Positions 46,752 through 62,661 of a stretch of 64,000 nt of DNA are shown here, one piece after another (position 1 is the first letter of the stretch; each line of letters opens with the position of its first letter). The DNA comes from Methanobacteriota archaeon (GTDB taxonomy: Archaea; Thermoplasmatota; Thermoplasmata; RBG-16-68-12; JAFNFQ01), in assembly GCA_017885655.1 (NCBI GenBank), contig JAFNFQ010000004.1, positions 89,373 to 153,372 on the forward strand, read 5' to 3'. The position numbers and the translations under genes are program-made. The notes below the pieces were generated by a model. That model saw nothing but the letters and a program-made list of their open reading frames with translations, searched no databases and was not told the origin of the DNA.

Positions 46752-47921
46752 CTAATCGAGGATTATATCGAGATAGGGCCGATAGGCGAAAACTCGATTG
46801 CGCCTGTTCCCCGTCTGTTCATTCAAAAGCGCGAGCCCCTCCAGTTCGACCGCGAGTTCGTTCGCGCTCGGGAACGACAGCCCTGTGACCCTCTGCATAT
46901 CGTTCACCGAGACCATCGGGTGCTGGTACATGAACTCGATGAGAATGAGTGCGCCTCCCGCCCTTCGTCCCATTGCATTCTGGATCAACCGCCTATGCTC
47001 CTCACGCAGCTGGATGATTCTCTTCGCTGTCTCGGTCGCCTGCCTGGACACCTCGTCGACGCCTTTCAGGAAGAACCTCAGCCAGCCCTCCCAGTCCCCC
47101 TCGTCCCTGACCGCCTGCAGCGTGTCGTAGTACGAAGACCTGTTCTGGCGGAAGTAATGTGAAAGGTAGAGCAGGGGCCGCTCGAGATAGCCCTCCGCCG
47201 TCAAGAGGAAGGTGATGAGCAGACGCCCCATCCTCCCGTTGCCGTCCAAGAACGGATGGATCGTCTCGAACTGGCTGTGCGCGAGCCCCACCTTGACCAG
47301 CGGCGGCAAGGATCTCTCTGTCAGGAGAAAGCGCTCCAGATCGTCGAGGGCCTTTCTCATCTCGGGTACAGCAGGCGGGACGAAGGCTGCATCTTCAATC
47401 CCCCTCTCCGAGGGGCCGATCCAGTTCTGCACCGACCTCAGCTCGCCAGGACTATGGCTGCTGCCCCTGCCCCTGCTGAGCAGGCGAGCATGTATCTCCT
47501 GAACGAGCGCGACAGACAGCTCTCTCCCCCTCGCGATCTGACCCAGACCGTGGTTCATCGCGTCGATGTAGTTGGACACATCGACGACATCGCGAGGGTG
47601 ACCGCGCAGGCGCGCGCCCGCCTCGTACTCGAGGAGGTCGATCAGCGATGATTGGGTGCCCTCGATCTGGCTGGACAGTACGGCCTCTTTCCTGATATAC
47701 ATGAAGACGAAGAGGTCCGGGTTCGGCAGGGTCTCCGTCGCCCCGCTGAGCCTCCCAAGGTTCCTGTCCGCTTGCGAGAGGATGCTCAGCATCGAGCTGT
47801 CGAAGTCGATCGGAGGATTGGGCGGGAGCGGTTTGGGGACATATGTGCGATAGCCTTCCGGTTGCATCGCATATTGACCTGCACGCGCGGTCGTTTTTAC
47901 CATATTTAAGCCAGCCTTCAC
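46752..47921 (-). CDS. Fic-family protein with C-terminal winged-helix region
   Basis: Fic motif HPFLDGNGRMGRLL; 389 aa with the C-terminal wHTH typical of long Fic proteins. Confidence 0.85.
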   Translation of the reverse strand: MKAGLNMVKTTARAGQYAMQPEGYRTYVPKPLPPNPPIDFDSSMLSILSQADRNLGRLSGATETLPNPDLFVFMYIRKEAVLSSQIEGTQSSLIDLLEYEAGARLRGHPRDVVDVSNYIDAMNHGLGQIARGRELSVALVQEIHARLLSRGRGSSHSPGELRSVQNWIGPSERGIEDAAFVPPAVPEMRKALDDLERFLLTERSLPPLVKVGLAHSQFETIHPFLDGNGRMGRLLITFLLTAEGYLERPLLYLSHYFRQNRSSYYDTLQAVRDEGDWEGWLRFFLKGVDEVSRQATETAKRIIQLREEHRRLIQNAMGRRAGGALILIEFMYQHPMVSVNDMQRVTGLSFPSANELAVELEGLALLNEQTGNRRNRVFAYRPYLDIILD

Positions 47922-48119
47922 AATTCAGAAGCTTTAACAGTTAATTAATTTTCTATTGACATTATTGAATAACGAGCTGCATCTATAAGTACATTCCTTC
48001 CAAAGCTAGCTGCTGCGAAAATGAAAGACCTTGAACGATTCTTTCGAAATCGGGCAAGGGAATCGCAGGCGCGGGATTCCTCAGCCTGAATCGCGCGGGT
48101 CGTTCCGGATCTTGATGTC

Positions 48120-48199
48120 TCACTCCGACTTCGCTCTCAGGATGACTGTGGCGATCCCGTCCAGGCACAGCGGCGACAGCTGCCCCTCCGAGCCCTCGC
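48120..48199. repeat. Copy d of the repeated gene-3' segment (shortest Y-type copy, about 80 bp)
   Basis: GTCCAGGCACAGCGGCGACAGCTGCCCCTCCGAGCCCTCG is shared with copies c and e. Minus-strand reading ...GSEGQLSPLCLDGIATVILRAKSE*. Confidence 0.6.
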
Positions 48200-48345
48200 G
48201 GAGGCGTAATTCTCCTGCGGCACTCCGGGCGGAACCGCACACGGGATTTACTCTGACGGAATTCTCCTATCCTAGGCCGATTGCGTTATGAAAGTACACA
48301 GAATCATTATGGCCGCGAATGCGTTGCCATTCGCGTGGATGAGAC

Positions 48346-48861
48346 ATGACTGCAGAGCGCACGATGCTGTTCATGGACGGATCGAATCTTTTCCACTCCA
48401 CCAAGGACTTCGACCCTGGATTGAAAATCGATCTCGTGAAACTTCGAGATTTCTTGGCGAAAGACAGGCTCCTGATACGCGCATACTACTATGGCTCGAT
48501 ACCGATTGGGAATCCGGAGAGAATCGCGAAACAGACCGCCTTTCATCACTTGCTCGAGTACAGCGGTTTCAAGACGGTGATTTTGCCGCTGCGCAGGCGA
48601 GGGGCGGAGTACGTGGAGAAAGGTGTCGACGTCTCCCTTGTTACCGACATGTTGGCGCTTGGGTTCGATCGAGCTTACGAGTGCGGCATTCTCGTGGCTG
48701 GCGATGCCGACTATGTCAGGGCGATTCAAGAGGTAGAACGCAAGGGCATCAGGATTCACGTCGCATTCTACGATCTCCCCTTATGTGCGGGCGACCTGAG
48801 ACGGGCTGCACATTCGTTCGTCTCGCTGGATAAGCATCTTGAGGAATTCAGGAAGTCGTGA
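48346..48861 (+). CDS. NYN-domain (LabA-like) protein, paralog 1
   Basis: MLFMDGSNLF ... YYYGS ... EKGVDVSLVTDML ... LVAGDADYVRAIQEV, matching the NYN/LabA core. The likely true start is the ATG at 48364. Confidence 0.8.
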   Translation: MTAERTMLFMDGSNLFHSTKDFDPGLKIDLVKLRDFLAKDRLLIRAYYYGSIPIGNPERIAKQTAFHHLLEYSGFKTVILPLRRRGAEYVEKGVDVSLVTDMLALGFDRAYECGILVAGDADYVRAIQEVERKGIRIHVAFYDLPLCAGDLRRAAHSFVSLDKHLEEFRKS

Positions 48862-48879
48862 AATCAAAAATGCATTGAG

Positions 48880-48975
48880 GAAGCTTTTTTGCCAGACGAC
48901 CGAGCCAAATGATGTGCGCTTGTCGTTATGGTTTTTGGCGGTCGTCTGGAGAGTTATTTTCGCATTCTTAATTCA
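48880..48975. repeat. Conserved hairpin element (copy 1) just downstream of NYN paralog 1
   Basis: TTTTTT-GCCAGACGACCG-(loop with CTTGTCGT)-CGGTCGTCTGG-AGAGTTATTTTC. Resembles 60420-60515 in the arms, the loop motif and the T-rich flanks. Confidence 0.55.
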
Positions 48976-49087
48976 CGTGCTTGCTTAAAACTCTTTCGCT
49001 TGGAGTCAGCCTCTTGATAGCCTGATCTGGCAAGCGTCCGTGTGAGCGATTGATGGATATTTCCAAGAAGGTTCCACGCGCAAAAGC

Positions 49088-49492
49088 CTAGATGGACGAT
49101 TCGAAGTTTGCGCGGAGTATCGCGGTCGCAACACCGTCCAGGCACAGCGGCGACAGCCTCCCCTCCGAGCCCTCGTGGACGCACGTCGCCCTCAGGTCGC
49201 ATTCGGGGCAGAACCGCACGCGGATCTCGCTCTCATCCAGCCCCAGGAGGCCCGCCTGGTCGAACATGTCGTGGAGGAGCTTCAGGTACTTGCCCTCGGC
49301 TATGCGCGGCACGTCGTACTTCGCCGCCTTCAGTCCCCCGCGCGCGGTCCAGTACTCGTAGAGGCGCCGCGCGCCCTTGGAGCTGTTGCACAAGGGGCCG
49401 ACCCGGAAGGCATTCCTCCCGCCACTAGTCAATAAATGGCGATTGCATTCCGTGCAGCTTCGCCACGAATTCTTCAGTCTTCTTAAAGTCAC
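49088..49492 (-). CDS. Hypothetical small Cys-pair protein (134 aa if GTG at 49492); the full-length gene whose 3' end recurs in copies a-d
   Basis: SCTECNRH ... FCPECDLRATCVHEG Cys pairs. 3' region 49088-49284 is the repeat unit. The GTG start overlaps the upstream RNase-III-like gene by 68 nt, so the true start may be an internal TTG/GTG/ATG. Confidence 0.5.
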   Translation of the reverse strand: MTLRRLKNSWRSCTECNRHLLTSGGRNAFRVGPLCNSSKGARRLYEYWTARGGLKAAKYDVPRIAEGKYLKLLHDMFDQAGLLGLDESEIRVRFCPECDLRATCVHEGSEGRLSPLCLDGVATAILRANFESSI

Positions 49493-49937
49493 GATCAGTA
49501 TCTAAGTAAACGGCTCCTATGAGCGCCTCTAGCGTCTCGGCCGGAATTCTCGGTTGCACATCGAGGCTCTTATCTCTCTCCGACCCTCCCAGCCGAATGA
49601 GACCTCCGACTCCTTTTTCCAGTGCGAGTTTTGCTAACGTCGGTTTCTCTTCCATCTTTCTCCTTTCCACGGTAATTTTGTCCCCTGTCTCGAAGCCGGA
49701 GTGATATAGGATATCGGTTAGTGCCGCTTTGAGCAAAGCATCGCCCAAGGTCGCGAGCGCTGTCTGATCCTCACATTTCGGTTGCTGCAACGCCCGATCC
49801 TCGACAAACTTCTGACGGGTCAATGCACGGATGAGAATATCTGTGTTTCCGAATCGATGGCCGAGAATTCCTTCCTCTTCGTTCGCTTTGATGATCTTGT
49901 CCATTGGGTCTTCGAGTTTCAAGCAATCACCTCGCAC
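49425..49937 (-). CDS. RNase III-domain-like protein (170 aa, single catalytic-domain type)
   Basis: LATLGDALLKAALTDILY and ETLEALIGAVYLD resemble the RNase III signature (ERLEFLGDA ... EALIGAIYLD). Confidence 0.55.
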   Translation of the reverse strand: MRGDCLKLEDPMDKIIKANEEEGILGHRFGNTDILIRALTRQKFVEDRALQQPKCEDQTALATLGDALLKAALTDILYHSGFETGDKITVERRKMEEKPTLAKLALEKGVGGLIRLGGSERDKSLDVQPRIPAETLEALIGAVYLDTDRDFKKTEEFVAKLHGMQSPFID

Positions 49938-50150
49938 ATATGTCTGTTCATGCTAATCCTGTCGTGTTCCATTGCTATTCCCCTCGCCGACATGCAAATG
50001 CATGGGGTCCTATTTCAAAGATGGCTTGCGCATGATGGTGACATCCCGCCCACCGCTAGATCGTCCTGCTGAGTTAAGTGTCAATTTGAGAATGTCAATC
50101 GCGACCTTTATCAAACTCTATATACGCGACACTCACATTCGGTTAATCGA

Positions 50151-50633
50151 TTGCGCATGGCAGGAGTTACGTGCCTGACCTTGTCGGGGGACAACTACTG
50201 GGCGGTCGTCAACAGCGTCTGGTCTCTTCTGTATGAGGGGCTTTCAGTCCCTAGCCACCTCATTCTCATAACTAACGGCCGCCACAAAGATGTCGCGAAG
50301 AGGGCTTCCGATTCGTTGCAGACACTGCTTTCCTTCTATGGGATGACCAGCGTCCCCGAAATCATCGTCGTCCCCGAATATGACCTGCGCCAGGTACACG
50401 ACAAGCTGTTTGAAATCATGCAGAAGGCCAAGTCGGAGGGAGAAGTCGCTCTCAATATCACTCCGGCTAGAAAGTCGCTTGCCACAGTCGCCATGGTCGC
50501 CGCATGGGAAACTAAGGTGAATAGAATCCATTACGTTTACCTCAGAAGTCTCAAGGACGCCGATTGTCCCTATCCCCTCATAGCAAGGGATCTCCATGAA
50601 TTGCTCGACTTGAAGGAGCTCCGCCCGAAATGA
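50151..50633 (+). CDS. CARF-like Rossmann-fold sensor domain protein (degenerate ligand-site motif)
   Basis: VTCLTLSGD ... HLILITNG ... VALNITPARKSLATVAMVAAWE ... IHYVYL parallels the Csa3-like protein in this window (VHIATVGE ... LHINITGGTNIMASAALIAG ... VYYI), but with NITPA in place of NITGG. TATA CTATATAC at 50118-50125; likely ATG at 50157. Confidence 0.45.
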   Translation: MRMAGVTCLTLSGDNYWAVVNSVWSLLYEGLSVPSHLILITNGRHKDVAKRASDSLQTLLSFYGMTSVPEIIVVPEYDLRQVHDKLFEIMQKAKSEGEVALNITPARKSLATVAMVAAWETKVNRIHYVYLRSLKDADCPYPLIARDLHELLDLKELRPK

Positions 50634-51718
50634 GCACATGGTGCGCGCCCAGCAGATTCCTGATGGCGCTGGTCAACAGGATTTTTGGATATGGACGCGG
50701 GGTAATCACAATCAGATATCCACTCTATGGCACGGAGCTCTTCTCATTCGATTCATCATTCAAAGTCAAGAGCGCCTCATCCAAGCACAAGTTTTACGAA
50801 GCGCGAAAGGCTGCAACCTCATGGAGCAAGGAGCTGAGTCACGAAGCGCCCGAGTGGAACCAAGTGATGGACTCGTTCGTATCCTCTGGGACATTGAAGC
50901 CTCAGAACCTCGCCGATTTCGCTGTATGGGCCAGGAAGACACTGGAGGATAGGAGACGTCCGGAATTGGCAGCTCGCCCATTCTTCCTGGCAATCGATAC
51001 GAATGTAGCTTACAATCGCCTGTTCACGCGGCATTTTCCAATCGATGGCCCAAGCGGCGTCGTTAGAGCTCCAGATTTCAGATTCCTGTTATGCGATGTT
51101 GTCCGTCGAGAAGTCGACGAACAGATTAAACGAAAATATCGCGGGGAACTGAACCAAATATTCACCCATCCTGAACAGGAATCGATTCTCAAGGAAATCG
51201 GAGGACGCAATGTCCTCGTGGCGCGAAGGGCCAAGCTCGCTCAGAATGAAATCGACTACCTTGACAAAACGCTCAACGCCTTGACTGTTCCTTGCACGGA
51301 GTTCCCCTCAGACAAGGAAGATCGAGATATTCTCATCGCAAAGACCTACGGAGCATTCAGCCGGGACAGAAACGTGGACATAGCGCTGCTGACGATGGAC
51401 CAGAACATGGTGGACCACGCGAAGAATGCTCAGATTATGTCCTTCTCGTTAAGGGTCCCTGGAGCTTCGGAACTGGAGAAGGTCGAACTGCACTACTCCC
51501 TGTGGCATCTGCTCCACGATCTGGCCGTTGCGCTAGGCGTGATTGACATAGAGCCCTTCGGGACGCGGGTGTACGGCGAGTGGGCCGGAAAAACCACGTC
51601 TGACTACGGCGCAGAGAGAGTGAAGATAGTTCTCGACGACAAAGCTCCAATAGCGAATGAAGTGGTCAGGGACTTCCGGATTTGCGCGAAAGTCTTGGGA
51701 GTGTCAATTAGCGGCTGA
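50630..51718 (+). CDS. PIN-domain nuclease with N- and C-terminal extensions
   Basis: ATGA overlap with the CARF-like gene. PIN core PFFLAIDTNVAYN ... DVVRREVDEQ ... LLTMDQNMVDHA. Confidence 0.65.
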   Translation: MSTWCAPSRFLMALVNRIFGYGRGVITIRYPLYGTELFSFDSSFKVKSASSKHKFYEARKAATSWSKELSHEAPEWNQVMDSFVSSGTLKPQNLADFAVWARKTLEDRRRPELAARPFFLAIDTNVAYNRLFTRHFPIDGPSGVVRAPDFRFLLCDVVRREVDEQIKRKYRGELNQIFTHPEQESILKEIGGRNVLVARRAKLAQNEIDYLDKTLNALTVPCTEFPSDKEDRDILIAKTYGAFSRDRNVDIALLTMDQNMVDHAKNAQIMSFSLRVPGASELEKVELHYSLWHLLHDLAVALGVIDIEPFGTRVYGEWAGKTTSDYGAERVKIVLDDKAPIANEVVRDFRICAKVLGVSISG

Positions 51719-53230
51719 CGGTTTGCCATCGTGGGATTCAGCGACTATGTCGGCGCCTAGATCCTTCGCTCTCTGTGTGACACGTTTAGCATCATCAGGT
51801 GACTTGGCCAGGATGTATTTCTTCCCTTTGTGTTGGAATAGATCTACATCTTCTTCTGACTTCAACCTCTGGGCACCCTTTGGAAGAGTCGGAGGGAGCA
51901 CTGTCCAACGGTACACGATCTCGTGGGGCAATGATTGCACCTCCCCCTCATCGGGAATAGGGAATTCCTTGGGCTCGGTCTCCGCCATCGAGTCCAACGA
52001 TTTCGCTTGAATTGTGCCAAGGTCTTTCTCGATTGTCCCTCCTACGATTGCCGGCGACAGTCCCCTGCCGTCCCAGAGGAGGCATTCGCCGGTAACCTGG
52101 CCGCGGGGCAGGTTCTCCGTCAGCCTGAAGTGGAATGTCTTGGGCCATGACTCCATCAGGGTTCGAAGACTCTCGCACTGGGCGGGGGTGAGTTGGACAC
52201 CGGTCTCGAACCCGGTATCTAATCCGCGTGATTCTACATTGGCCGTCATCACGATGCCACGCATCTTGCCGCTCATCTTGCCTAACATGGCTTTCGCGTG
52301 CAGGTACCTGTGAGCATATACATCCGCGCCTCCGCGCATCAGATTCACGGCAGCCTCCATGTTCTTGACGCGGGGTCGCATGAAAATGTGCGTTCTCAGC
52401 CCACCCTTGACCCTCTTCAGCAGGTTTTGTGTGACTTCGTGTTTCATATCGAGATTATAGATTGACATCCAGAAATCATCCTGTGCACTCTCCACGAAGT
52501 CCAACAGAGATTGCCTGAGGGTTTGCATGTTCTGCGTCGTCACGGGCAGGTCAGACGGCAACACGGACTTTATCTCCATCCTACCGGACTTGCTGACCGG
52601 TTCTAGGCGTCCAGCTCGGAACAGCTCGTGTTCGCTCTCCTGCCAGAATCCGATTCTGAACTGTTCGAAAAGCGCTTTCGCAAGATCACCTTTCAAGGGG
52701 ATAACCACCTCAACGTTCCGTGTCAAGGCTTCTGTGGCAAGATTTGCGGTGGAAAGGAAGGCTGCCGTCTTGCCAGGACTCCGCGGATCGACGATCACAA
52801 ATTTCGAATGGAAGTGCCCTGCTGTGCGGACCAATACTCTGCCCGCCAATGCGTCCAATGTCGCCTTATGCTCCTCAACCTGCCTCTTAGCGAATTCCGA
52901 TTCCTGAGAAAGGTCTTTGAGCAGATGTTGCTCCGACATCGTCAGCACGTAACAGCGCACACCTCTTTTCGACGCCTCCAGGAGCGCGTTGCCGATATTC
53001 TGATCGTAGAACAGGAAAGAGCAAAGGCATACCGTTTCCATAGAAGAGCGTATGGCTTCGACGATCATCGAACGGGCGAACCCAGTTTCCTCGGTGGGCC
53101 ATATGGTGGCGTCGCGCCTCGGCGGCACTGCGGGCGATCCCATCTGAGGCGCCAAAGGAATCCATGCAATCCCTAGAGGATTTTCCCTGAAAGGCTTGAT
53201 CATCTTCTTCTCTAGCGCCCAAGTGCTCAT
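51704..53230 (-). CDS. Phospholipase-D-family nuclease (two HKD motifs), MkoB-like
   Basis: HFHSKFVIVD and HAKAMLGK HxK motifs. ATG at 53230 gives an ATGA overlap with the upstream gene; the track ORF from 53278 would overlap it by 52 nt. Confidence 0.8.
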   Translation of the reverse strand: MSTWALEKKMIKPFRENPLGIAWIPLAPQMGSPAVPPRRDATIWPTEETGFARSMIVEAIRSSMETVCLCSFLFYDQNIGNALLEASKRGVRCYVLTMSEQHLLKDLSQESEFAKRQVEEHKATLDALAGRVLVRTAGHFHSKFVIVDPRSPGKTAAFLSTANLATEALTRNVEVVIPLKGDLAKALFEQFRIGFWQESEHELFRAGRLEPVSKSGRMEIKSVLPSDLPVTTQNMQTLRQSLLDFVESAQDDFWMSIYNLDMKHEVTQNLLKRVKGGLRTHIFMRPRVKNMEAAVNLMRGGADVYAHRYLHAKAMLGKMSGKMRGIVMTANVESRGLDTGFETGVQLTPAQCESLRTLMESWPKTFHFRLTENLPRGQVTGECLLWDGRGLSPAIVGGTIEKDLGTIQAKSLDSMAETEPKEFPIPDEGEVQSLPHEIVYRWTVLPPTLPKGAQRLKSEEDVDLFQHKGKKYILAKSPDDAKRVTQRAKDLGADIVAESHDGKPSAAN

Positions 53231-54357
53231 CGAACCGCCTCCTGCTTCCCCAGGTCGGTTGGTGCCCGCAAGTACCAATATGCCGCTGGCAATAAATCAC
53301 CACGAAGGATTGCGCCATGCCGAATCTGATCGGCCATCTTATCATGTTCAGGCAATGTGATATCGAAATCTGGGAATCTGTCGGTGACACCGCGGACTAG
53401 TTTAGGATAGCTGTTTTCATCAAGGTATTCGGTGATTTCATGCTCGAGAACCCACTCCCCCCATTCTTGTGCGTCTTTGACCGTTCGCGGGGCAATTGGC
53501 ACGTCACGGATTTCTGTTTCATCAAACGTGCCGTATTCACTCACGGTCGGCCTATCTAACTTCAGTTGCCTCGACATCGACGTCTTCTCTGCATCCGACA
53601 CCTCATTGAAGCCGCATCGCAAGACCCCTCTTCGAGCATCCCATGCCTGGCGAGTGTCGCCCAACAACTCAAGGAAAATGCTTTCGTGGGAAACCTTGGG
53701 CGACTCCATATCCCACTTTGCGAAACCTTCTGCCATGAGCTCAGATTCTCTATCAGGGTGGATGATCCATTTCAGCGAAAGCCTCTCATTCTGTTCCACC
53801 TGCGAACGTACGCATCGTTCAGCGACTGACATGATGCGGATTCGCTCCCCTAATCGTGGAAGCATGATTGACTGGTCTTTCAATTCGACAAGCCATGGCG
53901 GCACCTGCTCGACCTCCTCAGATTGTTTGCCTTTCGATTCGAGCCTCCTCGCCGCCCTGCGCGCGTTCACGATGTCCTCCACCATGGGCTCGTGCGTGCC
54001 TTCCAAATCCAGGATTCGCTGAGGAACCAACGGGTCGGTCGTGCAAAGAATTCTATAACGTCCATGCTCTGGCAATGGCACAGTTTTTCGCTCAAGCGAT
54101 TCTCTCCCTAAAGGCGTGAGACTTCCATAATCGTCAAGTAGCCCGAGATCTCGGCAGCGCGAAATTACCGTATGGCCAACGGCTATCGGTCGATCAATGA
54201 GGAGGGAATTGCAGATGTCCTCTGCTCTGATTTGTCCTCCGAGTTCTTCCGCTCGCATCAGAACGGAGATGACATCCTTGCGCCTCTCCTCCCTCCCGAC
54301 TTCCATAACAACTTCATACGCGGTCATTGACACATTTCGACTAAGGATGATCTTCAT
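53227..54357 (-). CDS. Hypothetical protein (376 aa) embedded between the helicase and PLD genes
   Basis: 4-nt overlaps on both sides indicate co-translation within the operon. No recognisable motif; the N-terminus is possibly wHTH-like. Confidence 0.6.
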   Translation of the reverse strand: MKIILSRNVSMTAYEVVMEVGREERRKDVISVLMRAEELGGQIRAEDICNSLLIDRPIAVGHTVISRCRDLGLLDDYGSLTPLGRESLERKTVPLPEHGRYRILCTTDPLVPQRILDLEGTHEPMVEDIVNARRAARRLESKGKQSEEVEQVPPWLVELKDQSIMLPRLGERIRIMSVAERCVRSQVEQNERLSLKWIIHPDRESELMAEGFAKWDMESPKVSHESIFLELLGDTRQAWDARRGVLRCGFNEVSDAEKTSMSRQLKLDRPTVSEYGTFDETEIRDVPIAPRTVKDAQEWGEWVLEHEITEYLDENSYPKLVRGVTDRFPDFDITLPEHDKMADQIRHGAILRGDLLPAAYWYLRAPTDLGKQEAVR

Positions 54358-57002
54358 CTTGTGTTCGACCTCCCTTCTTTTGAACTGTATGAGAAGGCTA
54401 TTGGTATCTGGGTCCCGAGCCGCCGCAACAAATCAGATTTCCACTGGCGGGCGAAGCCCCTGCAATTCCCCACTAGGACCAATTGGAATCGCCCTCTCGT
54501 TATCGCGACGTTCAATCTATGAGGACTGTCGAGGAATCCAATGCTTTTTCTTCCGAGTGGATCCCGAACAAAGGATAAAAGCACGAAATCTGCCTCGTGC
54601 CCTTGGAATCGGTCAACAGATCCAAGAGAGACGCGGACCCTGCCATCGCCGGTCTTGAAATGCTGCCTGTTCCAAGACTTGAACAAGCTACGCAATCGTC
54701 GTCTCAGCTCGCTTTCTTGGGCGAGATAGAATGTCAGCACGGCAACATCCCACGGCAATATAGTGCCGTTCTTCTTCTTCGGATTGCTAGTCGCCCACGA
54801 AAGGAAGGTCTGGAGCTCATCCATTATAATGTCGGCCTCGGCAAAATTGCGGTTGGCGTTCGGATCTTCATTCGCTAGAACATGAATCCAAACGGATCGG
54901 GCGCCGTATCTTCCGATATTCAGAGACCGCTGTGAAGCAATGTTTGGTGGGTCTCTGAGGCTTTGGCCTTCGTAGATATTCTCACGCGGGAACCGGGAGA
55001 TATCAGGATGCATTCGATGCTGATACGTCAAGACCGCGTGTCGCTTGCTCAGAACTTCCGTGGGCAGCCCGTGGGTGATTGCCGTTGGCTCATACTTCAT
55101 CTGCTCCCTTTCGAATCCGACTTGAAGCATTTCCAGGATAGAAGGCAGTGCTACGCGCTTGATTGAATTGACTTCATATGAAATACGATTCATTTCTTTT
55201 TCATCGAGCCACTTTGGCAGGAGCGCGTCGACATCTGCGGCGTACCGTTTCGCCTCTTCAGGCCGACGGCGGAGTTCAAACTGACGAATGAGGCGCCATC
55301 CGATTTCCGAAGCCCACGTTTTCTCCTCGCGTTCCATCTGTTCCTCATTGTCGGCCTCCTCGGGATGACGCACTCGCCAGTACGCCATTCTTCGCTCGAG
55401 GCGTGACGTGATAACCGTCTCGGAGAGAACTTGAACATTCAGAGGCAATAAACGACCGATGACGGTCAAATCCTTCGTGTCAGCGACCATCAGGTCGGCC
55501 CAAAGTGGCCCCAGGTCTCCACTATCGATCGTCTGCGGCGACAATTGTACCGTAGGTATGCCCAGCGCTTCCGCTTGTTTTACTGCCCATTCCCTGACCT
55601 TCGGGTCGGGGTCGCAAAGGAGAAAGCTGCGTTTCTCGCCCTTCTTGCGACGCGCCCGCACGAAGGCCTTGAACACTGGTAGTATCGCGCGGCTTTCCCT
55701 CTCGTCCAGGATGCCCGCAAGATTGGCCTCGACCTCGACATTGTTCACGAAGGGTGATAGCTGATTGACATCTCCAACGAGGACCCATTTCTTCGCATAG
55801 AGTGCTGGAACCAAGAACTCCTGGAATGGGGTCTTGCTCGCCTCATCAACAATCAGTGTGTCAAACTCCGGGAACGCCGGCCGCACGAGACCCACCGCTA
55901 TGTCAGGATGTTTGAGAATGCCTATGGTGGTCCCGCATACGAGATTCGCAGAATCCAGGATCAATCGCTGAAGAACCTTTTCGCCATCTTCTTCCAAAGC
56001 TTTCAGCAGGTAGTCCTGTGCGGGGGTCCTCCGCGCAATGCCTTTGAGTTTCTTCTTGAGTTCGTTCCTCTCAGTCTCGAGCCGGTTCTTGAGCAGAAGA
56101 TGAGAGACTTGCTCGGAAACGTCGAAATCCCTCGAGGCAATTCGCACCGCGACGACGGACCTTTCCATCCACCCCAGATCTACAAGCTTCTCCAAGACAT
56201 TGTCAACCGCCACATGCGTGGATGCGCAAAGAAGGACTCGATGTCCCAGCTCGATTTCTTGAAGAATCAACTCGCAGATGGTGACGGTTTTTCCGCTGCC
56301 GGGGGGCCCTTCAAGAATCGCGAAATCCGGGGTGCCAAGGGCTTTCTCCACAAAGTCACGTTGTTCATCGACTCCCGCAAAGTCGTCATCGACCAGTATT
56401 CTCCAGTTAATGGGGGAGACAGCCGCAACTGGTTCCCATCGAACATTGTTGTAGCCTTCGGCCAATGAAATCAAAGGCCTGTGAGCAGGGTGAGGACTCT
56501 GCCGAATATTCTCCAGGGCCATTAGCTCGCGATAGAGGTTCCATGTATTGGGGTGAATGTAGACTTTCTCTGCAGCTGGCAATCGGGACACACAGATCGC
56601 GTCAATTTCGGGCTCCCTGTCAAGCACCTCAATATCGCCGCGTCCTGCCTTTGCTTTATCGGAAATGAAATCCGCATCGAAGAACTCATCGAACACTTCT
56701 TCGGGAGTCTCAGCGTCGATTTCTCTCAGACGAATCCAAAATCCCATCGCACTCGTTTTTCGTTGTGCCGGTTGGTGAATGTTTTGTTCGGAGGGCATCG
56801 ATCCATTGGCGGTTCGATTTCGGATAATCTCTGGGTCAATAGGTCCCTCCCAGGCGAGCATCAATGCCTGCGCTTCAATCCTGTACTTTGCGCTGCTAAG
56901 ATACTTGTAGAACGGTCGGTAGTTGTTGTAGGTTCTTTCCAAGAGAACCTGAATGTCTGTGTTAGGAACTCTTGGCATATTAGCAAAGTGCAGGTTCAGC
57001 AT
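54354..57002 (-). CDS. Superfamily-1 Upf1/DNA2-like helicase (COG1112-type, MkoA-like) with about 230-aa N-terminal domain
   Basis: Walker A GPPGSGKTV, Walker B LIVDEASKT, motif VI VAITRGRFQLVLVG. Confidence 0.85.
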   Translation of the reverse strand: MLNLHFANMPRVPNTDIQVLLERTYNNYRPFYKYLSSAKYRIEAQALMLAWEGPIDPEIIRNRTANGSMPSEQNIHQPAQRKTSAMGFWIRLREIDAETPEEVFDEFFDADFISDKAKAGRGDIEVLDREPEIDAICVSRLPAAEKVYIHPNTWNLYRELMALENIRQSPHPAHRPLISLAEGYNNVRWEPVAAVSPINWRILVDDDFAGVDEQRDFVEKALGTPDFAILEGPPGSGKTVTICELILQEIELGHRVLLCASTHVAVDNVLEKLVDLGWMERSVVAVRIASRDFDVSEQVSHLLLKNRLETERNELKKKLKGIARRTPAQDYLLKALEEDGEKVLQRLILDSANLVCGTTIGILKHPDIAVGLVRPAFPEFDTLIVDEASKTPFQEFLVPALYAKKWVLVGDVNQLSPFVNNVEVEANLAGILDERESRAILPVFKAFVRARRKKGEKRSFLLCDPDPKVREWAVKQAEALGIPTVQLSPQTIDSGDLGPLWADLMVADTKDLTVIGRLLPLNVQVLSETVITSRLERRMAYWRVRHPEEADNEEQMEREEKTWASEIGWRLIRQFELRRRPEEAKRYAADVDALLPKWLDEKEMNRISYEVNSIKRVALPSILEMLQVGFEREQMKYEPTAITHGLPTEVLSKRHAVLTYQHRMHPDISRFPRENIYEGQSLRDPPNIASQRSLNIGRYGARSVWIHVLANEDPNANRNFAEADIIMDELQTFLSWATSNPKKKNGTILPWDVAVLTFYLAQESELRRRLRSLFKSWNRQHFKTGDGRVRVSLGSVDRFQGHEADFVLLSFVRDPLGRKSIGFLDSPHRLNVAITRGRFQLVLVGNCRGFARQWKSDLLRRLGTQIPIAFSYSSKEGRSNTR

Positions 57003-57901
57003 CCAATTTCCCTTCCCCTTTCCCTCAACACTCCGAAGATCTCCTTGTCATCAGCGATGACCTTCCCCCCGGGACGCCATTGGTAATGGCCGCCTCGAAC
57101 AAGAAACTTTCGCCTATCCCATCCCGCTCTCTGAATAGCATCTTGCACTCCGACCTCGAGAATCGACGGTCCGAACCCATAACTGCCACCCGTATTCTGG
57201 AAGAATCGACCGAGTGGGTCCATCATGAGGTATGAGTCTGTCATGGCCCGATTATCCTCTTTGACTGGATTGAGGCATTCATGGCGAGCGACGAAGGCTT
57301 CGAACTGCCCATTCATAGTGGCCAAGTCTGCGAAGCTGTCATCGTTCTCTCCTTTTATTGGGAGCATTTGAAAGACCTTCCACCGCCGAGGTTTCAGTTC
57401 GGCAACGAAGGATCGCATGTCTTCTCCCCAATTCATTGAGGTGACAACAGTGTTGACTTTGAATCGTATGCCGAATTCATGAATCCGCTTTGCCACTTCG
57501 CGAACAAGTGCGACATGATTTCCATCACCCCGCCCGAGAGCTTTTTCCACTTGCTCTGATGCGCTGTCAACGCTCAGAGCGATCCAGTCGACTAGGTCTG
57601 CAATCGTGCTGAGATAGGTCTTATTCAGCCGCGTCCCGTTCGATATGATCATCGTTGTCAGGCCAGCTTCTTTTGAAGCCTGAAGTACCTCTCGGAGGTG
57701 GGAACACAATGTCGGCTCCCCTCCCGCCAAGGTCAACTTTTCCGTCCCCGCTTTGCGGAGAATCTCCGGAATCTTCACCGCCTGATTCATCGAAAGCGGG
57801 GTACAGATTCCCTTGAAATGGGCGAAGCAGAATCTGCAGCGATAGTTGCACCATGGCCATATATGCCAATTCACCGAAACCGGTTCCACGCCCCCATTCA
57901 T
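56996..57901 (-). CDS. Prokaryotic viperin (pVip) radical-SAM enzyme
   Basis: Residue-level correspondence with animal viperin: PVSVNWHIWPWCNYRCRFCF vs [20 protein letters not shown]; AGGEP vs SGGEPF; ISNGTRL vs VSNGSLI; FKVNTVV vs FKINSVI; RWKVFQMLPIKGEN vs RWKVFQCLLIEGEN; MTDSYLMMD vs MKDSYLILD; ILEVGVQDAIQRAGWDRRKFLVRGGHYQW vs [29 protein letters not shown]. Confidence 0.9.
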   Translation of the reverse strand: MNGGVEPVSVNWHIWPWCNYRCRFCFAHFKGICTPLSMNQAVKIPEILRKAGTEKLTLAGGEPTLCSHLREVLQASKEAGLTTMIISNGTRLNKTYLSTIADLVDWIALSVDSASEQVEKALGRGDGNHVALVREVAKRIHEFGIRFKVNTVVTSMNWGEDMRSFVAELKPRRWKVFQMLPIKGENDDSFADLATMNGQFEAFVARHECLNPVKEDNRAMTDSYLMMDPLGRFFQNTGGSYGFGPSILEVGVQDAIQRAGWDRRKFLVRGGHYQWRPGGKVIADDKEIFGVLRERGREIGC

Positions 57902-57946
57902 CTAGATTGTCAGGTATTGCAGACACCTATAGCGGTTCTCTTTTAT

Positions 57947-57967
57947 AGTAAAATGCTGCATTTTACT
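57947..57967. promoter_or_regulatory. Perfect 10-bp inverted repeat (AGTAAAATGC-T-GCATTTTACT) in the pVip/csa3 divergent promoter; candidate Csa3 operator
   Basis: Lies between the TTTTATAG TATA-like box (57941-57948) and the csa3-like ATG (57973), i.e. over the expected leaderless transcription start. Confidence 0.4.
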
Positions 57968-57972
57968 GACGG

Positions 57973-58617
57973 ATGTGCGCAGTCCATATAGCCACGGTCG
58001 GCGAAACGCCCGAGCCAATCATAGAAGGCGTCAGACACCACAGCGTCGATTTGCAGGTGCTCCTGCATAGTCGCGAGACAAAGAGTGTTGCCGTCGAAAT
58101 TCGCAGGAGGATTAAGAGCCTTATTGGCAGAGACATCTGTGAGCTGAAGGAGATCGATCCGTTCGACATGCGCGACATCATGACTGCCATCGTCTCATAT
58201 CGAAAAAGGATGCCCGCGGAGGTGCTCCACATCAACATAACGGGCGGAACCAACATCATGGCATCTGCGGCCCTGATAGCGGGATTCGTGGTCGGGGCAC
58301 GCGTTTACTATATCCGGAAGGATCCAAACCCGAAGATACCGCTCGCTGATCGTATCATCGAGCTTCCGGTTCCCCGCGTTTCTCTTGAGAGCCTCGACGA
58401 GAATCATCGCAGGATTCTGAAATTGATACATAATCGAGGAACGGAGTTCGCTCCGGCCAACAGCGTGATTGCGACCGAATTGGGGATGTCGCGGCAGCTC
58501 GTGAGCTACCACCTCAGGAGGCTCGAGAGGGCGGGCTTATTGCACCTGACACTTGAAGGTCGAAACAAGATCGCGAGTCTGACGCCCGAAGGAGACCTCT
58601 ACGCTGAGATTGTTTGA
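57973..58617 (+). CDS. csa3: Csa3-like transcriptional regulator (CARF domain + winged HTH)
   Basis: CARF motifs VHIATVGETPEP and LHINITGGTNIMASAALIAGFVVGARVYYI; C-terminal wHTH RILKLIHNRG ... IATELGMSRQLVSYHLRRLERAGLL. Confidence 0.8.
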   Translation: MCAVHIATVGETPEPIIEGVRHHSVDLQVLLHSRETKSVAVEIRRRIKSLIGRDICELKEIDPFDMRDIMTAIVSYRKRMPAEVLHINITGGTNIMASAALIAGFVVGARVYYIRKDPNPKIPLADRIIELPVPRVSLESLDENHRRILKLIHNRGTEFAPANSVIATELGMSRQLVSYHLRRLERAGLLHLTLEGRNKIASLTPEGDLYAEIV

Positions 58618-59255
58618 TCCAGAATGCGCCCCATAACCGAAGCCGAATCACAAGGACGCGATGGCAAGATTCTTGTCCACCCATTAACATGGCGCACCAA
58701 CGAGGCCGTCATATGACCAAGAATCCGGCGAAAATGAGGGAGGACTTCAAGCCCGATAGGATACGATTTCTGATGGTCGGAGAATCACCGCCCAGGAAAG
58801 GGTTCTTTTATGATCCTGAAAGCTCATTGAAGTCGTTGTCTCGCGGTACCGCTGAAGTCTTTGAGGAAGTATATGGTGAGGACTATGGCAAAGGAGAAGA
58901 CCAGAAGCTCCTGTTCCTCAATAGCTTCCAATCTAAAGGGTTCTATCTTCACGATTTCTACGCTGTGAGAGGCAAGAAAGTAAGAAGAAGACGTTGGGAC
59001 GATATATACGAAGGAATCGACGAGCTCAGGTCATTGCTGGAAGTCAGTAAGGCCGACATTGGACGTGTCGTGACGGTGTGGCCCGAGATCTCGGACATCG
59101 TGGATGAAGCTTTGTGGAAGGAGGAGATTAAGGCACTGCACAGGATCGTCCCATTCCCCTCCAATGTGAGCATGAAGGTCTACAAGTGGAGGATCTCGGA
59201 GATCGTGAAGGAGTTCGAAGGTCGTCCGCGTTCGCATTCTCGCAACGATCGATGA
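58614..59255 (+). CDS. Hypothetical protein, ATGA-coupled to csa3 (alternative ATG at 58713); possible uracil-DNA-glycosylase-superfamily fold
   Basis: FLMVGESPP and IVPFPSNVS loosely resemble UDG motif A (GE.PG) and motif B (HPSP.N). Weak assignment. Confidence 0.4.
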   Translation: MIQNAPHNRSRITRTRWQDSCPPINMAHQRGRHMTKNPAKMREDFKPDRIRFLMVGESPPRKGFFYDPESSLKSLSRGTAEVFEEVYGEDYGKGEDQKLLFLNSFQSKGFYLHDFYAVRGKKVRRRRWDDIYEGIDELRSLLEVSKADIGRVVTVWPEISDIVDEALWKEEIKALHRIVPFPSNVSMKVYKWRISEIVKEFEGRPRSHSRNDR

Positions 59256-59423
59256 CGGAGTGACTGAGGCAAAATCCGCGATTTCTGCATGATCATCTCC
59301 TTCCCCCTGATGCGGATACGCCCGGATAGGACTTGACTTCATCGCAAGAAATACCGTCGAACTGTCTCCAACCACGTTGATGTTCCTCCATTTCCACACA
59401 TCAATGTAGGAGGTGTGATTCGA

Positions 59424-59585
59424 TTGAAGCCTATCAACGTAGACGACAAGAACGTGTGGTTCGAGCGCGGGGTGAGGTGCCTGGAGAGACACGAGTACGG
59501 TCAGGCGGTGGACCGCTTCAAGAGGGCGCGCGTGCCGCTCCCATGGGAGGTGCTGAGGAGAAGGAGCGGGAAGATGAAGTACTAA
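59424..59585 (+). CDS. Possible small ORF (53 aa, TTG start) upstream of NYN paralog 2
   Basis: GGAGGTG 9 nt upstream of the TTG. Product KPINVDDKNVWFERGVRCLERHEYGQAVDRFKRARVPLPWEVLRRRSGKMKY. Speculative. Confidence 0.2.
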   Translation: MKPINVDDKNVWFERGVRCLERHEYGQAVDRFKRARVPLPWEVLRRRSGKMKY

Positions 59586-59635
59586 GCTGGAGGCTCTGAT
59601 GCGAATGGTGAATATCATCAAGGGATAATCGGCCC

Positions 59636-60199
59636 ATGCAACATTCGATGCCTGAGAGATTGATGATTTTCATCGATGGTTCAAATCTCTTTCACACCGG
59701 TCGACTGTACGGGAAGCATTACCGAATCGAGGACCTATGCAACGAACTGTCCGCGGACAGACAACTCGTCCGGACCTACTACTATGGTTCCATTCCCACT
59801 GGCGGAGACGACGACAAGGTGGAGAAGCAGAAAGGATTCCATATGAGGCTGGAATATGGGGGAATCAATGTCAGCATCATTCCGCTGAAGACACGGGAGG
59901 TCAATTTTAAATGTCCAAAGTGTGGGGCAAAATCGGCTTTCAGCCGCAATGTCGAGAAGGGGGTGGACGTCGCGCTCGTCACTGACATGCTTGCTTTCGG
60001 TTTCCGCGATGGCTACGATGTGGCCTTGCTGGTCGCGGGCGACCTGGATTACATCAGAGCGATTGAGGAAGTGAAGAGGATACCAAAAAGGGTCGAGATA
60101 GCATTCTTCGAGAGCATCCAGGCGATCAGCGGCGCACTGAAGAGGAAAGCGGATCGCTTCATTCCTCTGGAACCGATAATCAACAAGATCGGCACCTAG
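59636..60199 (+). CDS. NYN-domain protein, paralog 2, with an inserted CPKCG zinc-ribbon
   Basis: MIFIDGSNLF ... YYYGS ... KCPKCG ... EKGVDVALVTDML ... LVAGDLDYIRAIEEV. Confidence 0.8.
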   Translation: MQHSMPERLMIFIDGSNLFHTGRLYGKHYRIEDLCNELSADRQLVRTYYYGSIPTGGDDDKVEKQKGFHMRLEYGGINVSIIPLKTREVNFKCPKCGAKSAFSRNVEKGVDVALVTDMLAFGFRDGYDVALLVAGDLDYIRAIEEVKRIPKRVEIAFFESIQAISGALKRKADRFIPLEPIINKIGT

Positions 60200-60419
60200 T
60201 GTTTAGACGTAGTTATTTCACCAGGTCGCCGAGGAGATACCGAAAGCGTCTCCCCGCCAGGGCATGTTGGTTCCGCCGACCTGTTAAGTTGTTTCACCAC
60301 CCTTATGACTCCCGCGTATCTTAAGCTTTTTCCTGGGGCTATCTCGAAGGGGCAGTACATGATTCTCGAATAGGCATCGTTGGCGGCGATGACACGGTCC
60401 GTGATCTGTTGACTTGGTA

Positions 60420-60515
60420 AAGGTTTTTTACCAGACGACCGACAAGCCATCCCCGCGAACACTTGTCGTCAAGGCATTAGCCGTCGTCTGGAGAGCTATT
60501 TTCAGACACCTCATT
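60420..60515. repeat. Conserved hairpin element (copy 2) downstream of NYN paralog 2
   Basis: TTTTTT-ACCAGACGACCG-(loop with CTTGTCGT)-CCGTCGTCTGG-AGAGCTATTTTC. See 48880-48975. Confidence 0.55.
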
Positions 60516-60677
60516 CGTTTCGGACTTTGAAGCCTTTATGCTTCAATTCATCAAGGTGCGCCGCACACGATGTCGCGAACCGAATTGAGTACACGGTCGG
60601 AGGAATCCCTGATGTCTTTCTCCGTGATGTTCAAGCGAGATCGCATCCGCATTTCTTTCCGCGCGAACGGGTTGGAC

Positions 60678-61187
60678 TTAGGGTACCCAGATGCATTCTT
60701 CGACTGTGACGAATTCGAAGGTCGCCGATTCCGGATTGCCGTCCTTGCGTATCCGCGAGAGGAGCGTTTCGAAGTCCTCATCGGAGTCGATTACCTTCCG
60801 ATTCTTCACTGCGATGTAGCGGTCGCCGAACTTCTTGCGCAGGGTCAACATGGACCTATCGATCCATGCCGAGTTCCGCTGCTCTCTTCGAATCGAGCGG
60901 AGTATCTCTGCCTTGTTCACGTTCATTACAGGCTCTTCATGGCCTGCTATGGAGATAAAGCCTTCTCGTCCGATTATGGTCGGTCCGAGTTGCAACGCAC
61001 ATCTACGGCGAATCGGGGTGAGTATTGAGAAGGGGCGTTGGCTTGAGTCTCTTTTCATGAGTGAGAGGGCGAATTTTCGACCCCCTACATGGTTCAAGAT
61101 AGTCTTGCCTATCCTATATTCTCTCATTGATTCAAGAATCAATAGAGCAGGATTGGGGTATGGACCATGTGCCTCGCACCTACTCAA
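60678..61187 (-). CDS. Hypothetical protein; true gene may be only the C-terminal roughly 80 aa
   Basis: The C-terminal part (MNVNKAEILRSI ... DRYIAVKNRKVIDSDEDFETLLSRI ... FEFV) looks like a small self-contained domain. The long N-terminal extension is low-complexity. Confidence 0.4.
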   Translation of the reverse strand: MSRCEAHGPYPNPALLILESMREYRIGKTILNHVGGRKFALSLMKRDSSQRPFSILTPIRRRCALQLGPTIIGREGFISIAGHEEPVMNVNKAEILRSIRREQRNSAWIDRSMLTLRKKFGDRYIAVKNRKVIDSDEDFETLLSRIRKDGNPESATFEFVTVEECIWVP

Positions 61188-61316
61188 TCCCGCCAGAGAG
61201 TGCGAATATCCTTTCGATCATTCCGCCCGAGACTCCCATGGGTTCTGGACAAGTCCAGTGATGTCTCAGACGGATGGGCGATAGCATTTTAGCGAGGCAT
61301 GCCATTCATTATTTAA

Positions 61317-61664
61317 ATGGAAGCGCAGGGGGGCGCGACGCTCCGTCACGCAAAGACGCATCTGAGCCGCGAGGGACTCGCATGCGTTATTGTCGATTAC
61401 TTGGTTCTAAGAAAGGAGAGTACCAAGCCAGGATGCACCGCGTACGACATCGCTAAAAATGCACCTAGGCTGAGGACCACACAGCGTCAGCAGCGAATCG
61501 AGGAGATTCTAAGGGATCTCGAGACACAGGGAATCGTCCACTGCGAGCGCTACGAGAAAGCAAGCTACTTCTCGATTACTGATGATGGGATGAAGTGGTA
61601 CAAGGATATCGTCAAACGTTTCTATGATGTGCTCGGGCCGATTTATCCTGGATTTCAGGACTGA
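61317..61664 (+). CDS. PadR-like winged-helix transcriptional regulator
   Basis: VIVDYLVLRKESTKPGCTAYDIAKNA ... RQQRIEEILRDLETQGIVHCE ... YFSITDDG follows the PadR pattern (hGYel ... G.lYp.L.rLe..G). Confidence 0.5.
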   Translation: MEAQGGATLRHAKTHLSREGLACVIVDYLVLRKESTKPGCTAYDIAKNAPRLRTTQRQQRIEEILRDLETQGIVHCERYEKASYFSITDDGMKWYKDIVKRFYDVLGPIYPGFQD

Positions 61665-61754
61665 CTCGCAACGGATTTCGCTTGAATATTGCCCCGGATA
61701 TTATTCGGTCGGGTTTAGATCAGTCAGCTGTGTTCAGATTCCTTAGAAGGGGCT

Positions 61755-62501
61755 TCATCTGACCCAGATTGAAGTGAATTTGCCGTCACTATGCGTGAGG
61801 AGTGCATTGAAGACATTCTTTGTGGGCAATCCCTCCTCACTCCGAGTCCATTCGACCGCGTCGGCCTCGAAACCGGCTTTGGACACAGCCAATATCACGA
61901 AAGGTCCCCTGCCACGTCTTCTTGCAACGTCCATGACATCCGCTTTGAACTCGACAAGTTCCGCCATGGTCGTCGGACTTTGCCCTTCGAACCTTCTTAT
62001 GGCTGCCAATCGTGCTCCGAATTCAGCATAGATATTGAAACGGTGCGAGCCAGTCTTTCCAAGGACTTCAGCGTCGAAAGTGACTTTAGCTTTTGAGAAC
62101 TCGGGATGAAGCTCCGTGAGCTTGGCCATTATCTGCTTATCCAAATCCTCGCTCGTAGTCGGCAACATCTCGAATTTGACTTTGAACCAAAGAGGGTAGA
62201 AGCATTCAAAGAAGTGCTCTAAAGGTTTATCGAACTTCATGGACGGGGCAATCACAAAGAGTCCGAAAAAGCCCAGGATTATTCCGGCCAACCCGGAAAT
62301 AAGAACAGCCAAATCCGTAAACGGCCCCCACACTTCCGGTTCAAGGACCATTGCCAGAATCCATAGAATCAATGTGATTATCATGACGAGGCTGGATACT
62401 TTCGCCCAGAGTACCAAAGTTCTGAGCTTCTGTCGCTGGCTAAACAGGGTTTCTGACGCTTCCAAGAGAGTAAGTACCGGAGGAGTGCCTGCTTTATTCA
62501 C
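61755..62501 (-). CDS. Membrane protein (two TM helices) with a C-terminal cytoplasmic domain of unknown function (possibly nuclease-like)
   Basis: TM segments LVMIITLILWILAMV and LAVLISGLAGIILGFFGLFVIA; C-terminal D..E.K-like residues (DAEVLGK ... ELVEFKAD). Confidence 0.5.
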   Translation of the reverse strand: MNKAGTPPVLTLLEASETLFSQRQKLRTLVLWAKVSSLVMIITLILWILAMVLEPEVWGPFTDLAVLISGLAGIILGFFGLFVIAPSMKFDKPLEHFFECFYPLWFKVKFEMLPTTSEDLDKQIMAKLTELHPEFSKAKVTFDAEVLGKTGSHRFNIYAEFGARLAAIRRFEGQSPTTMAELVEFKADVMDVARRRGRGPFVILAVSKAGFEADAVEWTRSEEGLPTKNVFNALLTHSDGKFTSIWVR

Positions 62502-62661
62502 GATGCTGAATATGAAATGGCGACATATAGCCGGTACTGGAATTTCGTTCTAGTTCCACGACGCGGAAATCATCATACGTGAACTGATGTTCTCCTGAAT
62601 CGTATTTTCGTTCGTTGCCAACCCTAGTATCTCTTCATGCCTCTATGTCTCGGTGTAAAAA

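Follow-up and report, generated by a model that had tools for sequence, protein, structure and literature searches.

Structured elements conserved beside archaeal LabA-type NYN genes and their possible role at the 3′ end of the NYN mRNA

Why should two genes for NYN-domain proteins, lying apart in one archaeal genome segment, each be followed by much the same hairpin? The question arises in a stretch of 64,000 nucleotides from a Methanobacteriota archaeon (contig JAFNFQ010000004.1, positions 89,373 to 153,372; the whole stretch is called the window below, and positions are counted from its first base), in which a preliminary description had noted two such sequences and had proposed a mobile-cassette boundary, an attachment site or a structured small RNA that travels with NYN genes. 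We find that the two sequences, here called copies A and B, belong to a conserved family of elements tied to archaeal LabA-type NYN genes, and that the helices of this family are under selection for pairing, as is shown by compensatory changes. We suggest, giving the idea an even chance, that the element may act in cis, as RNA, forming a gene-specific structured 3′ end of the NYN mRNA.

The element and its copies in the window

The element is about 85 bases long and forms a three-way junction: one stem (P1) closes it, and two hairpins (P2 and P3) lie inside. Copy A (48880..48963, + strand) lies 3′ of the gene for NYN-A (48346..48861, +), a protein of 171 amino acids with a LabA-type NYN nuclease domain (Pfam PF01936, E 4.4e-26). 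Copy B (60419..60505, +) lies 3′ of the gene for NYN-B (59636..60199, +), which has 187 amino acids and an NYN domain with a CxxC insertion (PF01936, E 1.8e-24). NYN-A and NYN-B are 44% identical; five acidic residues (D11, D95, D101, D120 and D122, as listed for NYN-A) are invariant in an alignment of 14 sequences, and the CxxC insert of NYN-B is common to the proteins P0008, P0010, P0012, P0022 and P0024.

Both copies follow a common plan, in which a U/A-rich box is followed by a stem of 9-11 bp (CCAGACGAC/GUCGUCUGG) that encloses a two-hairpin interior, and then by a tail of the form AGAG(Y)UAUUUUC. In copy A the 5′ box GAAGCTTTTTTG (48880-48891) includes a T6 run (48885-48890), and P1 consists of 11 perfect pairs between CCAGACGACCG (48892-48902) and CGGTCGTCTGG (48939-48949); CTTGTCGT (48919-48926) is a vestigial 3′ strand of P2, and the tail AGAGTTATTTTC occupies 48950-48961. 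Here the sequence CAAG has gone through a 4-nt deletion, and the interior refolds as a single long hairpin. Copy B begins with the box AAAGGTTTTTTA, its T6 run lying at 60424-60429; in its P1, CCAGACGAC (60431-60439) and GTCGTCTGG (60483-60491) form 9 pairs, which are followed by a C.C mismatch and then a G-C pair. Its P2 joins CGACAAG (60440-60446) to CTTGTCG (60462-60468), with CTTGTCGT spanning 60462-60469; after the linker TCAA comes P3, formed by GGC (60473-60475) and GCC (60480-60482), and the tail AGAGCTATTTTC closes the element at 60492-60503.

The T-run, the inverted arms, CTTGTCGT and the AGAG tail had all been described correctly, but the interior had been taken for a simple loop, and in copy B it is two hairpins. 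The distances given earlier, of about 20 to 225 nt from the NYN stop codons, also agree with ours: the NYN-A stop ends at 48861, with the T-run 23 nt and the stem 30 nt downstream, and the NYN-B stop ends at 60199, with copy B starting about 220 nt beyond it. Both copies fold better than shuffled sequences (z -4.1 and -4.3), and do so on either strand (z -3.6 to -4.3).

Covariance models were built stepwise, R1 from 4 sequences, R2 from 8 and R3 from 15, the last being trained on copy B and 14 foreign elements without copy A. R2 scores copy A at 89.4 bits and copy B at 95.9 bits, while R3 scores copy B at 60.8 bits and recovers copy A, absent from its training, at 36.8 bits (E = 1.9e-8). In the 64-kb window, searched on both strands and unfiltered, R3 matches 60419-60505, 48880-48963 and 60209-60298 only. 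The last of these (60209..60298, +; 19.4 bits, E 0.008) is probably a diverged third copy that belongs to NYN-B itself: its stem pairs CAGGTCG (60222-60228) with CGACCTG (60277-60283), begins 21 nt past the NYN-B stop and is followed by the tail TTAAGTTGTTTCACC. Its folding z-score alone is not significant. The R3 scan found no junction element at a third, distant NYN gene of the window (62662-63294; 24-28% identity to NYN-A and NYN-B), and 3′ of the stop codon of that gene there is only an A/U-rich hairpin, AAAUAUC...GAUAUUU.

A family of three-way junctions beside NYN genes

The search for further copies, which the preliminary description had called for, brought about 20 from elsewhere in addition to the third copy in the window. 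Distant NYN homologues were obtained by protein look-up and one metagenome scan, and the further copies, on metagenomic contigs and contigs of metagenome-assembled genomes (MAGs), all adjoin NYN genes whose proteins have 41-96% identity to NYN-A, or 36-38% at L014 and L015. Contigs with proteins identical to the window NYNs bear identical elements. Protein identity falls from 81% at locus L088 through 77-80% at L093/L094 (the gene in L093 being a pseudogene), 64% at L089, 52% at L096/97, 49% at L098/99 (an Archaeoglobaceae MAG), 48% at L009, 45% at L027 and 43% at L010 to 36-38% at L014 and L015, and L011, L022, L024, L102/103 and L112 have NYN-B-like proteins with the CxxC insert. The element of L089, with two bulges in its stem, is matched weakly by R2 (E 0.001-0.015) and not by R3 at E <= 1; we count it a probable member on the strength of its tail GGAGAGTTGATTTC, which is of the same kind. 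At still more distant loci (L012, L013, L019, L020/26, L021 and L065) simple hairpins stand at the same place.

All sense matches of R3 with E < 0.01 in 300 kb of NYN-centred loci abut an NYN gene. An exact-pattern scan of 185,579 species genomes gave one real match, in a Thermoplasmata MAG (L092) that is 96% identical to window positions 48134-49421 and in which the element is again NYN-adjacent; a match in an Armatimonadetes genome (L091) was rejected as a chance hairpin. The window stem pattern had 0 matches in viral contigs, and three other stem patterns had 0, 3 and 39 there, about the estimated chance number; among these 42 matches to bare stem patterns the full element is present only in L112, which is alone in being NYN-adjacent and is the 1 true match. 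Relatives of NYN-A or NYN-B were not found in plasmid and phage collections. The orientation of the element relative to NYN is constant in 17 of 19 loci, and in 12 of the 17 same-strand loci P1 starts 1-12 nt past the stop codon. Downstream of the element there is no conserved partner gene, the neighbours being DUF5678, MazE-like and unknown genes, an aldehyde dehydrogenase and a PLD-helicase, and no shared motif was seen 5′ of the NYN starts. The element subtype follows the NYN subfamily, CxxC-insert NYNs going with CAGGCGGC stems and UGAGCU.UUAAC tails, which indicates long co-inheritance.

Independent minimum-free-energy (MFE) folds of 10 members gave the same P1, P2 and P3 junction, with unrelated sequences in P2 and P3. 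P1 has 8-11 bp; P2 begins 0-1 nt past its 5′ strand, an A/U-rich linker of 4-8 nt follows, and P3 (often GGGG...CCCC) meets the 3′ strand of P1 without a spacer. The interior enclosed by the stem measures 27-48 nt, and its loops and junctions vary freely. At the base of P1 the sequence CAG...CUG is conserved, and the remaining pairs are replaced from member to member, so that besides CCAGACGAC/GUCGUCUGG we find GCAGGUGGC/GCCACCUGC, GCGGGUGGC/GCCACCCGC, CAGGCGGC/GCCGCCUG and GCAAGUGGU/ACCACUUGC.

In a model-made alignment of 19 real sequences (A12), 95.1% of the cells are paired and 14 of the 16 pairs are changed on both sides (69 cells), a result reached in 0 of 500 shuffles, with slid controls at 30-48%; an alignment of hand-extracted helices (A9) gives 96.2%, 15 of 16 pairs, 0 of 500 shuffles and slid controls at 30-56%. 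Because both alignments were fitted to the structure, their numbers for P2 and P3 are inflated; P1 is anchored by sequence alignment, and there 8 of 9 pairs are changed on both sides. Compensatory helices with variable loops, the general marks of a conserved structured RNA motif, are both found here, although covariation counts cannot separate RNA structure from DNA structure. Of the earlier ideas, that of a structured element travelling with NYN genes is the one that these findings support.

For the flanking boxes R3 has the consensus aAAGuuuUUAUa before the junction and aAaguUaUUAuC after it, with a shared form of about AAAGUUNUUAU, and the two boxes of one element are slightly more alike than boxes across elements (7.29 versus 6.58 matches, permutation p 0.017). 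Copies A and B have T6 before the stem and T4 after it, where relatives have instead CTCTTATT, TAATTAAC or TTATGTTATA.

The resemblance of the two window copies, which had been put down to conservation between distant loci, is real, and its cause is simple. L088 has, in this order, the final 34 nt of an NYN-B-like gene, the 220-nt stretch that separates NYN-B from copy B, an NYN-A-like gene (81% identical to NYN-A in amino acids and 73% in nucleotides), a copy-B-type element and the same DUF5678-gene region that lies 3′ of copy B in the window (87% identity). The ancestral arrangement was therefore NYN-B, 220-nt stretch, NYN-A-like gene and element, from which the window lineage lost about 620 nt with the NYN-A-like gene, leaving copy B as an orphan. 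The loss junction shows TTT microhomology only. Between copy B and L088 the stems P1 and P2 are kept, and substitutions fall mostly in the loops of P2 and P3 and in the linker. We attribute the conservation of the 220-nt stretch to NYN-B's own diverged element, the third copy, which lies in it; the likeness of A and B to common descent of two NYN-A-type gene-plus-element units; and the deep conservation of the element to a family-wide constraint.

Possible roles of the element

Our favoured reading, that the element may be a structured 3′ end of the NYN mRNA, is based on placement and strand. With P1 only a few nucleotides past the stop codon in most same-strand loci, RNA polymerase transcribing NYN must enter the element, and since most loci have no space for a terminator 5′ of it, the two should be co-transcribed. 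Fixed orientation, strand-specific boxes and the far higher model scores of the coding strand (54 versus 21 bits at L009) all suggest that the element is read as the 3′ end of the NYN mRNA. There the foot of P1 would lie within reach of a ribosome ending translation, and the junction may define or protect the 3′ end of the mRNA. The two U/A-rich boxes may serve as alternative archaeal termination points, in which case a short isoform would lack the junction and a long isoform would include it. The junction may also be a docking or cleavage site whereby the NYN ribonuclease senses its own mRNA, giving feedback control. This self-recognition step is taken by analogy from Regnase-1 (ZC3H12A), an RNase of the NYN/PIN type, which cuts its own message at a stem-loop of the 3′ UTR.

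Several observations weigh against this reading of the element as an mRNA 3′ end. Autoregulation by NYN, if it occurs, is pure inference from that analogy; no LabA-type NYN protein has a known substrate (PMC5499597), and the only solved relative, 2QIP, is of no known function. The T-runs are not kept across the family. A further, outer helix, in which RNAfold joined the 5′ box to the tail with several G-U pairs, shows 68% pairing versus 65% in shuffles (48 of 500) and no covariation, and this helix, which would require G-U pairs, is unsupported. In the helices themselves G-U pairs number 0 in A9 and two in A12, the few non-pairs of A9 are A.C or C.A, that is, G.U on the opposite strand, and the opposite strand folds the core more stably in 12 of 20 members. 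This stability speaks, if mildly, in favour of that strand or of a structure at the DNA level; assignment of the strand by G-U versus A.C counts and by plus/minus MFE leans towards the opposite strand, not significantly. Finally, L090 and L100/101 hold an inverted element 37-77 nt upstream of the NYN start, with the 5′ box toward the gene, a placement that a pure 3′-UTR role does not predict. An IS240 transposase beside the L100 element makes rearrangement possible there, and the two independent inverted cases may leave room for a role at the level of DNA, for an RNA with a gene of its own or for an RNA read from the opposite strand.

An independent RNA could be a separate small RNA partner, loosely of the type III toxin-antitoxin kind, which would be cut out at the flanking AAAGUUNUUAU boxes, perhaps by NYN, and would then bind or restrain NYN. 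That the junction is flanked by two similar boxes (aAAGuuuUUAUa and aAaguUaUUAuC), whose likeness within an element is that given above, would fit such excision; such a role is compatible with downstream or divergent upstream placement (L090, L100), and the NYN genes stand without a protein partner in defence or toxin-antitoxin-like islands. Yet the element is single and downstream, where ToxI-type antitoxins are tandem repeats and upstream, an independent RNA at the inverted loci has no evident promoter, LabA-type NYN proteins are without known toxicity and the co-variation of the boxes is weak, and we think this partner rather doubtful. A bolder form, in which NYN and the junction RNA would make a two-part module, the nuclease cutting its own transcript at the AAAGUUNUUAU boxes and keeping the released RNA as inhibitor or specificity subunit, seems to us distinctly improbable. 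The opposite strand would supply a functional RNA of another kind, in most loci an antisense transcript running towards the 3′ end of NYN and in L090 and L100, where it is the NYN sense strand, part of the 5′ leader. Every helix non-pair is A.C or C.A on the coding strand and G.U on the opposite one (also in P2 of L093 and P3 of L112), and the better opposite-strand fold amounts to 5-10 kcal/mol in copy B, L093, L112, L065 and L013. Against this, total G-U counts (14 versus 23) are not significantly different, inspection by eye of copy B/L088, L009 and L022 gave no conserved promoter box at a consistent distance there, the structure as read on that strand is followed by no U-run, strand specificity is seen in the conserved single-stranded boxes, and the models favour the coding strand; we hold such an RNA to be very unlikely.

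A DNA-level element could be a site of recombination or insertion, or else a tiny mobile palindrome with target-site duplications as its boxes, and would mark the entry and exit of NYN cassettes. The indel of about 620 nt between L088 and the window, NYN gene included, has one end within a few bases of the 5′ box; both orientations relative to NYN occur; direct-repeat-like boxes surround inverted-repeat arms with CAG...CUG conserved at their outer ends; G-U pairs are nearly absent and the two strands fold about equally well; and integrase or transposase genes lie nearby in L096, L098 and L100. On the other side, copies away from NYN genes were not found in the window, the 300 kb of loci or the viral contigs, the exact-pattern scan found one copy per species genome, and subtypes follow NYN subfamilies. 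The indel junction shows only TTT microhomology, as an ordinary deletion would, no site array lies beside the L096 integrase, and the boxes are unlike the attC cores RYYYAAC/GTTRRRY and are not mutually complementary. Read as target-site duplications, the boxes co-vary weakly and have one consensus at every locus; an empty site was not found. A site of this kind is in our judgement unlikely, and the mobile-cassette boundary or attachment site of the preliminary description, having neither attC-type core boxes nor dispersed copies nor a site array, is not borne out, though the indel end at the 5′ edge of the element and the two inverted loci leave it a small chance. The simplest account would be an ordinary 3′ hairpin or terminator of no special role, with A and B alike only through recently diverged copies of an NYN-A-type gene. 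Divergence of the element between copy A and L088 is about that of the adjoining genes (73% nucleotide identity), the T6 run and TATTTTC tail of the coding strand suit archaeal oligo-T termination, and distant NYN genes bear plain hairpins there (L012, L013, L019, L021, L065). But junction, CAG/CUG base and tail persist down to 41-52% protein identity while stem sequences are replaced compensatorily, elements of this kind stand at no further gene of the window, and many members are without T-runs, so that we give this account little chance.

Known elements, genomic setting and meaning

Considering catalogued RNAs, a gathering search of the window against Rfam 15 found tRNA-Ala only, seven other member loci gave tRNAs only, and a permissive search of copies A and B gave only chance C/D snoRNA matches (E 0.46 and 1.2). 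A C/D box sRNA was rejected: AUGAUGU is in copy A alone, and the Rfam matches, of which copy B has none, are at chance level. We found no report of such an element in the literature on NYN, LabA, COG1432 or DUF88, and class it as a new, uncatalogued family within a known kind, the gene-associated structured elements.

A close likeness is to Regnase-1, in that an NYN/PIN-like ribonuclease has a conserved structured element in its own mRNA, 3′ of the coding region, where in Regnase-1 it is a handle for negative feedback. Regnase-1 differs in being eukaryotic, in using a simple stem-loop with a sequence-specific loop and in needing cofactors, whereas in the NYN element three helices meet at a junction, the loops vary, the base of the stem is conserved and boxes stand on either side. 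Term-seq studies in Methanosarcina and Sulfolobus reportedly found oligo-U termination with alternative 3′ UTR isoforms in archaea. The coding-strand U-rich tracts on both sides of our structure could similarly give short and long 3′ ends; archaeal oligo-U terminators, however, need no hairpin and are not specific to a gene family, while in the NYN element the structure is conserved and the U-runs are not. The earlier word terminator-like holds only loosely, for a G+C-rich stem with a T-containing tail at a gene end. A consensus scan of 48200-49200 for bacterial intrinsic terminators (a short-loop G+C-rich hairpin followed by at least 5 T in 8) gave 0 sites; the loop region of the window copies is 36-43 nt, with AGAG between stem and T-run, and across the family two inner hairpins fill the branched interior of 27-48 nt, the T-run lies 4-6 nt past the stem or is absent, and the host is an archaeon.

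Integrons have reportedly been found in archaea, and the element resembles attC in being an imperfect palindrome 3′ of a cassette-like ORF, with a variable or branched terminal structure, integrases nearby in some loci and a non-coding strand that folds at least as well. It differs in lacking the R′′/R′ cores (RYYYAAC...GTTRRRY), arrays and the pattern of extrahelical bases, and in keeping to one gene family. The ends AAGCTTTTTTG and AGAGTTATTTTC are direct repeats and are not complementary, and GTTATTT, or GCTATTT in copy B, misfits GTTRRRY; each locus has a single site, and apart from L096/97 and a fragment in L098 no integrase was seen, the window ORFs scanned included. With ToxI and CptI the element shares a structured RNA beside an endoribonuclease gene and possible processing at repeated flanking motifs; those RNAs are tandem repeats upstream of a toxin that is not NYN-fold, with a terminator between, and near NYN-A or NYN-B there is no tandem array. 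Short inverted-repeat arms, a conserved terminal trinucleotide and repeat-like flanks recall repetitive extragenic palindromes (REP) or miniature inverted-repeat transposable elements (MITE), which have many dispersed copies at unrelated sites, whereas the three copies in the 64 kb and all matches in the 300-kb loci adjoin NYN genes, with which the element co-diverges.

As to setting, beyond about 48 kb the G+C content is 0.52, down from about 0.60, and the region of about 44000-64000 resembles a variable defence or toxin-antitoxin island, with genes for Fic, an RNase III-like protein, a DrmC-like phospholipase D, an SF1 helicase and a radical SAM protein, two CARF-like (HFX_2341_N) genes, of which one adds an HTH domain, and the three NYN genes; the window also encodes HerA and a SAMP-activating E1, as suits an archaeal genome. 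A Fic/DOC gene adjoins NYN both in the window (46752-47921) and in the unrelated contig L102 (1228-2331), where the pair stands beside MmeI-like and PLD-helicase defence genes, and a Fic-NYN neighbourhood may be recurrent. Tyrosine-recombinase genes of the phage-integrase family lie 0.4-1.2 kb upstream of NYN in L096 (1090-2049, -) and L098 (888-1346, +; a fragment), the latter with tRNA-Lys alongside, which suggests that NYN units ride on integrated elements. In L100 an IS240-family transposase lies upstream of the inverted element, and an intron-containing tRNA, missed by ARAGORN (Rfam tRNA 36.8 bits), stands at about 3040-3135 (L101 952-1044), some 25 nt after the NYN stop; tRNA genes are also near NYN in L027 and L098.

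Elsewhere in the window an unannotated family with the motif FCPxCDL..TCVHEGSEGxLSPLCLDGVAT has one full copy and three C-terminal fragments (49091-49492, 48123-48255, 46572-46700 and 44296-44451, all on the - strand). The fragments are interspersed among unrelated cargo genes (MNT-like, acylphosphatase-like, Fic and NYN-A), and the arrangement resembles the outcome of repeated recombination, or of cassette replacement, at the gene's 3′ end. A repeat search of the window found the palindromic motif ATATCGGTATCGGCA...TAATCCGATA three times; direct repeats lie at 40613-40767/41565-41719 (155 nt, 83%) and 40792-40874/42593-42723 (63 nt, 75%). An ORF of 2532 amino acids (19038-26636, +) ends just 5′ of tRNA-Ala(CGC) (26679-26751, +).

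LabA-type NYN proteins (COG1432) are widespread predicted ribonucleases, and the element, kept beside their genes in different archaeal lineages, is the first concrete candidate for their recognition target, small enough (60-90 nt) for direct tests of binding and cleavage. It adds a candidate to the uncatalogued structured RNAs of archaea, where known gene-specific 3′ elements are few, and its orphan copy B illustrates how such a sequence can stand as the trace of a gene lost from a variable island of the defence type. The two-part module of NYN and RNA, if true, would give the LabA/NYN family a new arrangement, RNA-antitoxin-like or RNA-guided, in the defence islands of archaea.

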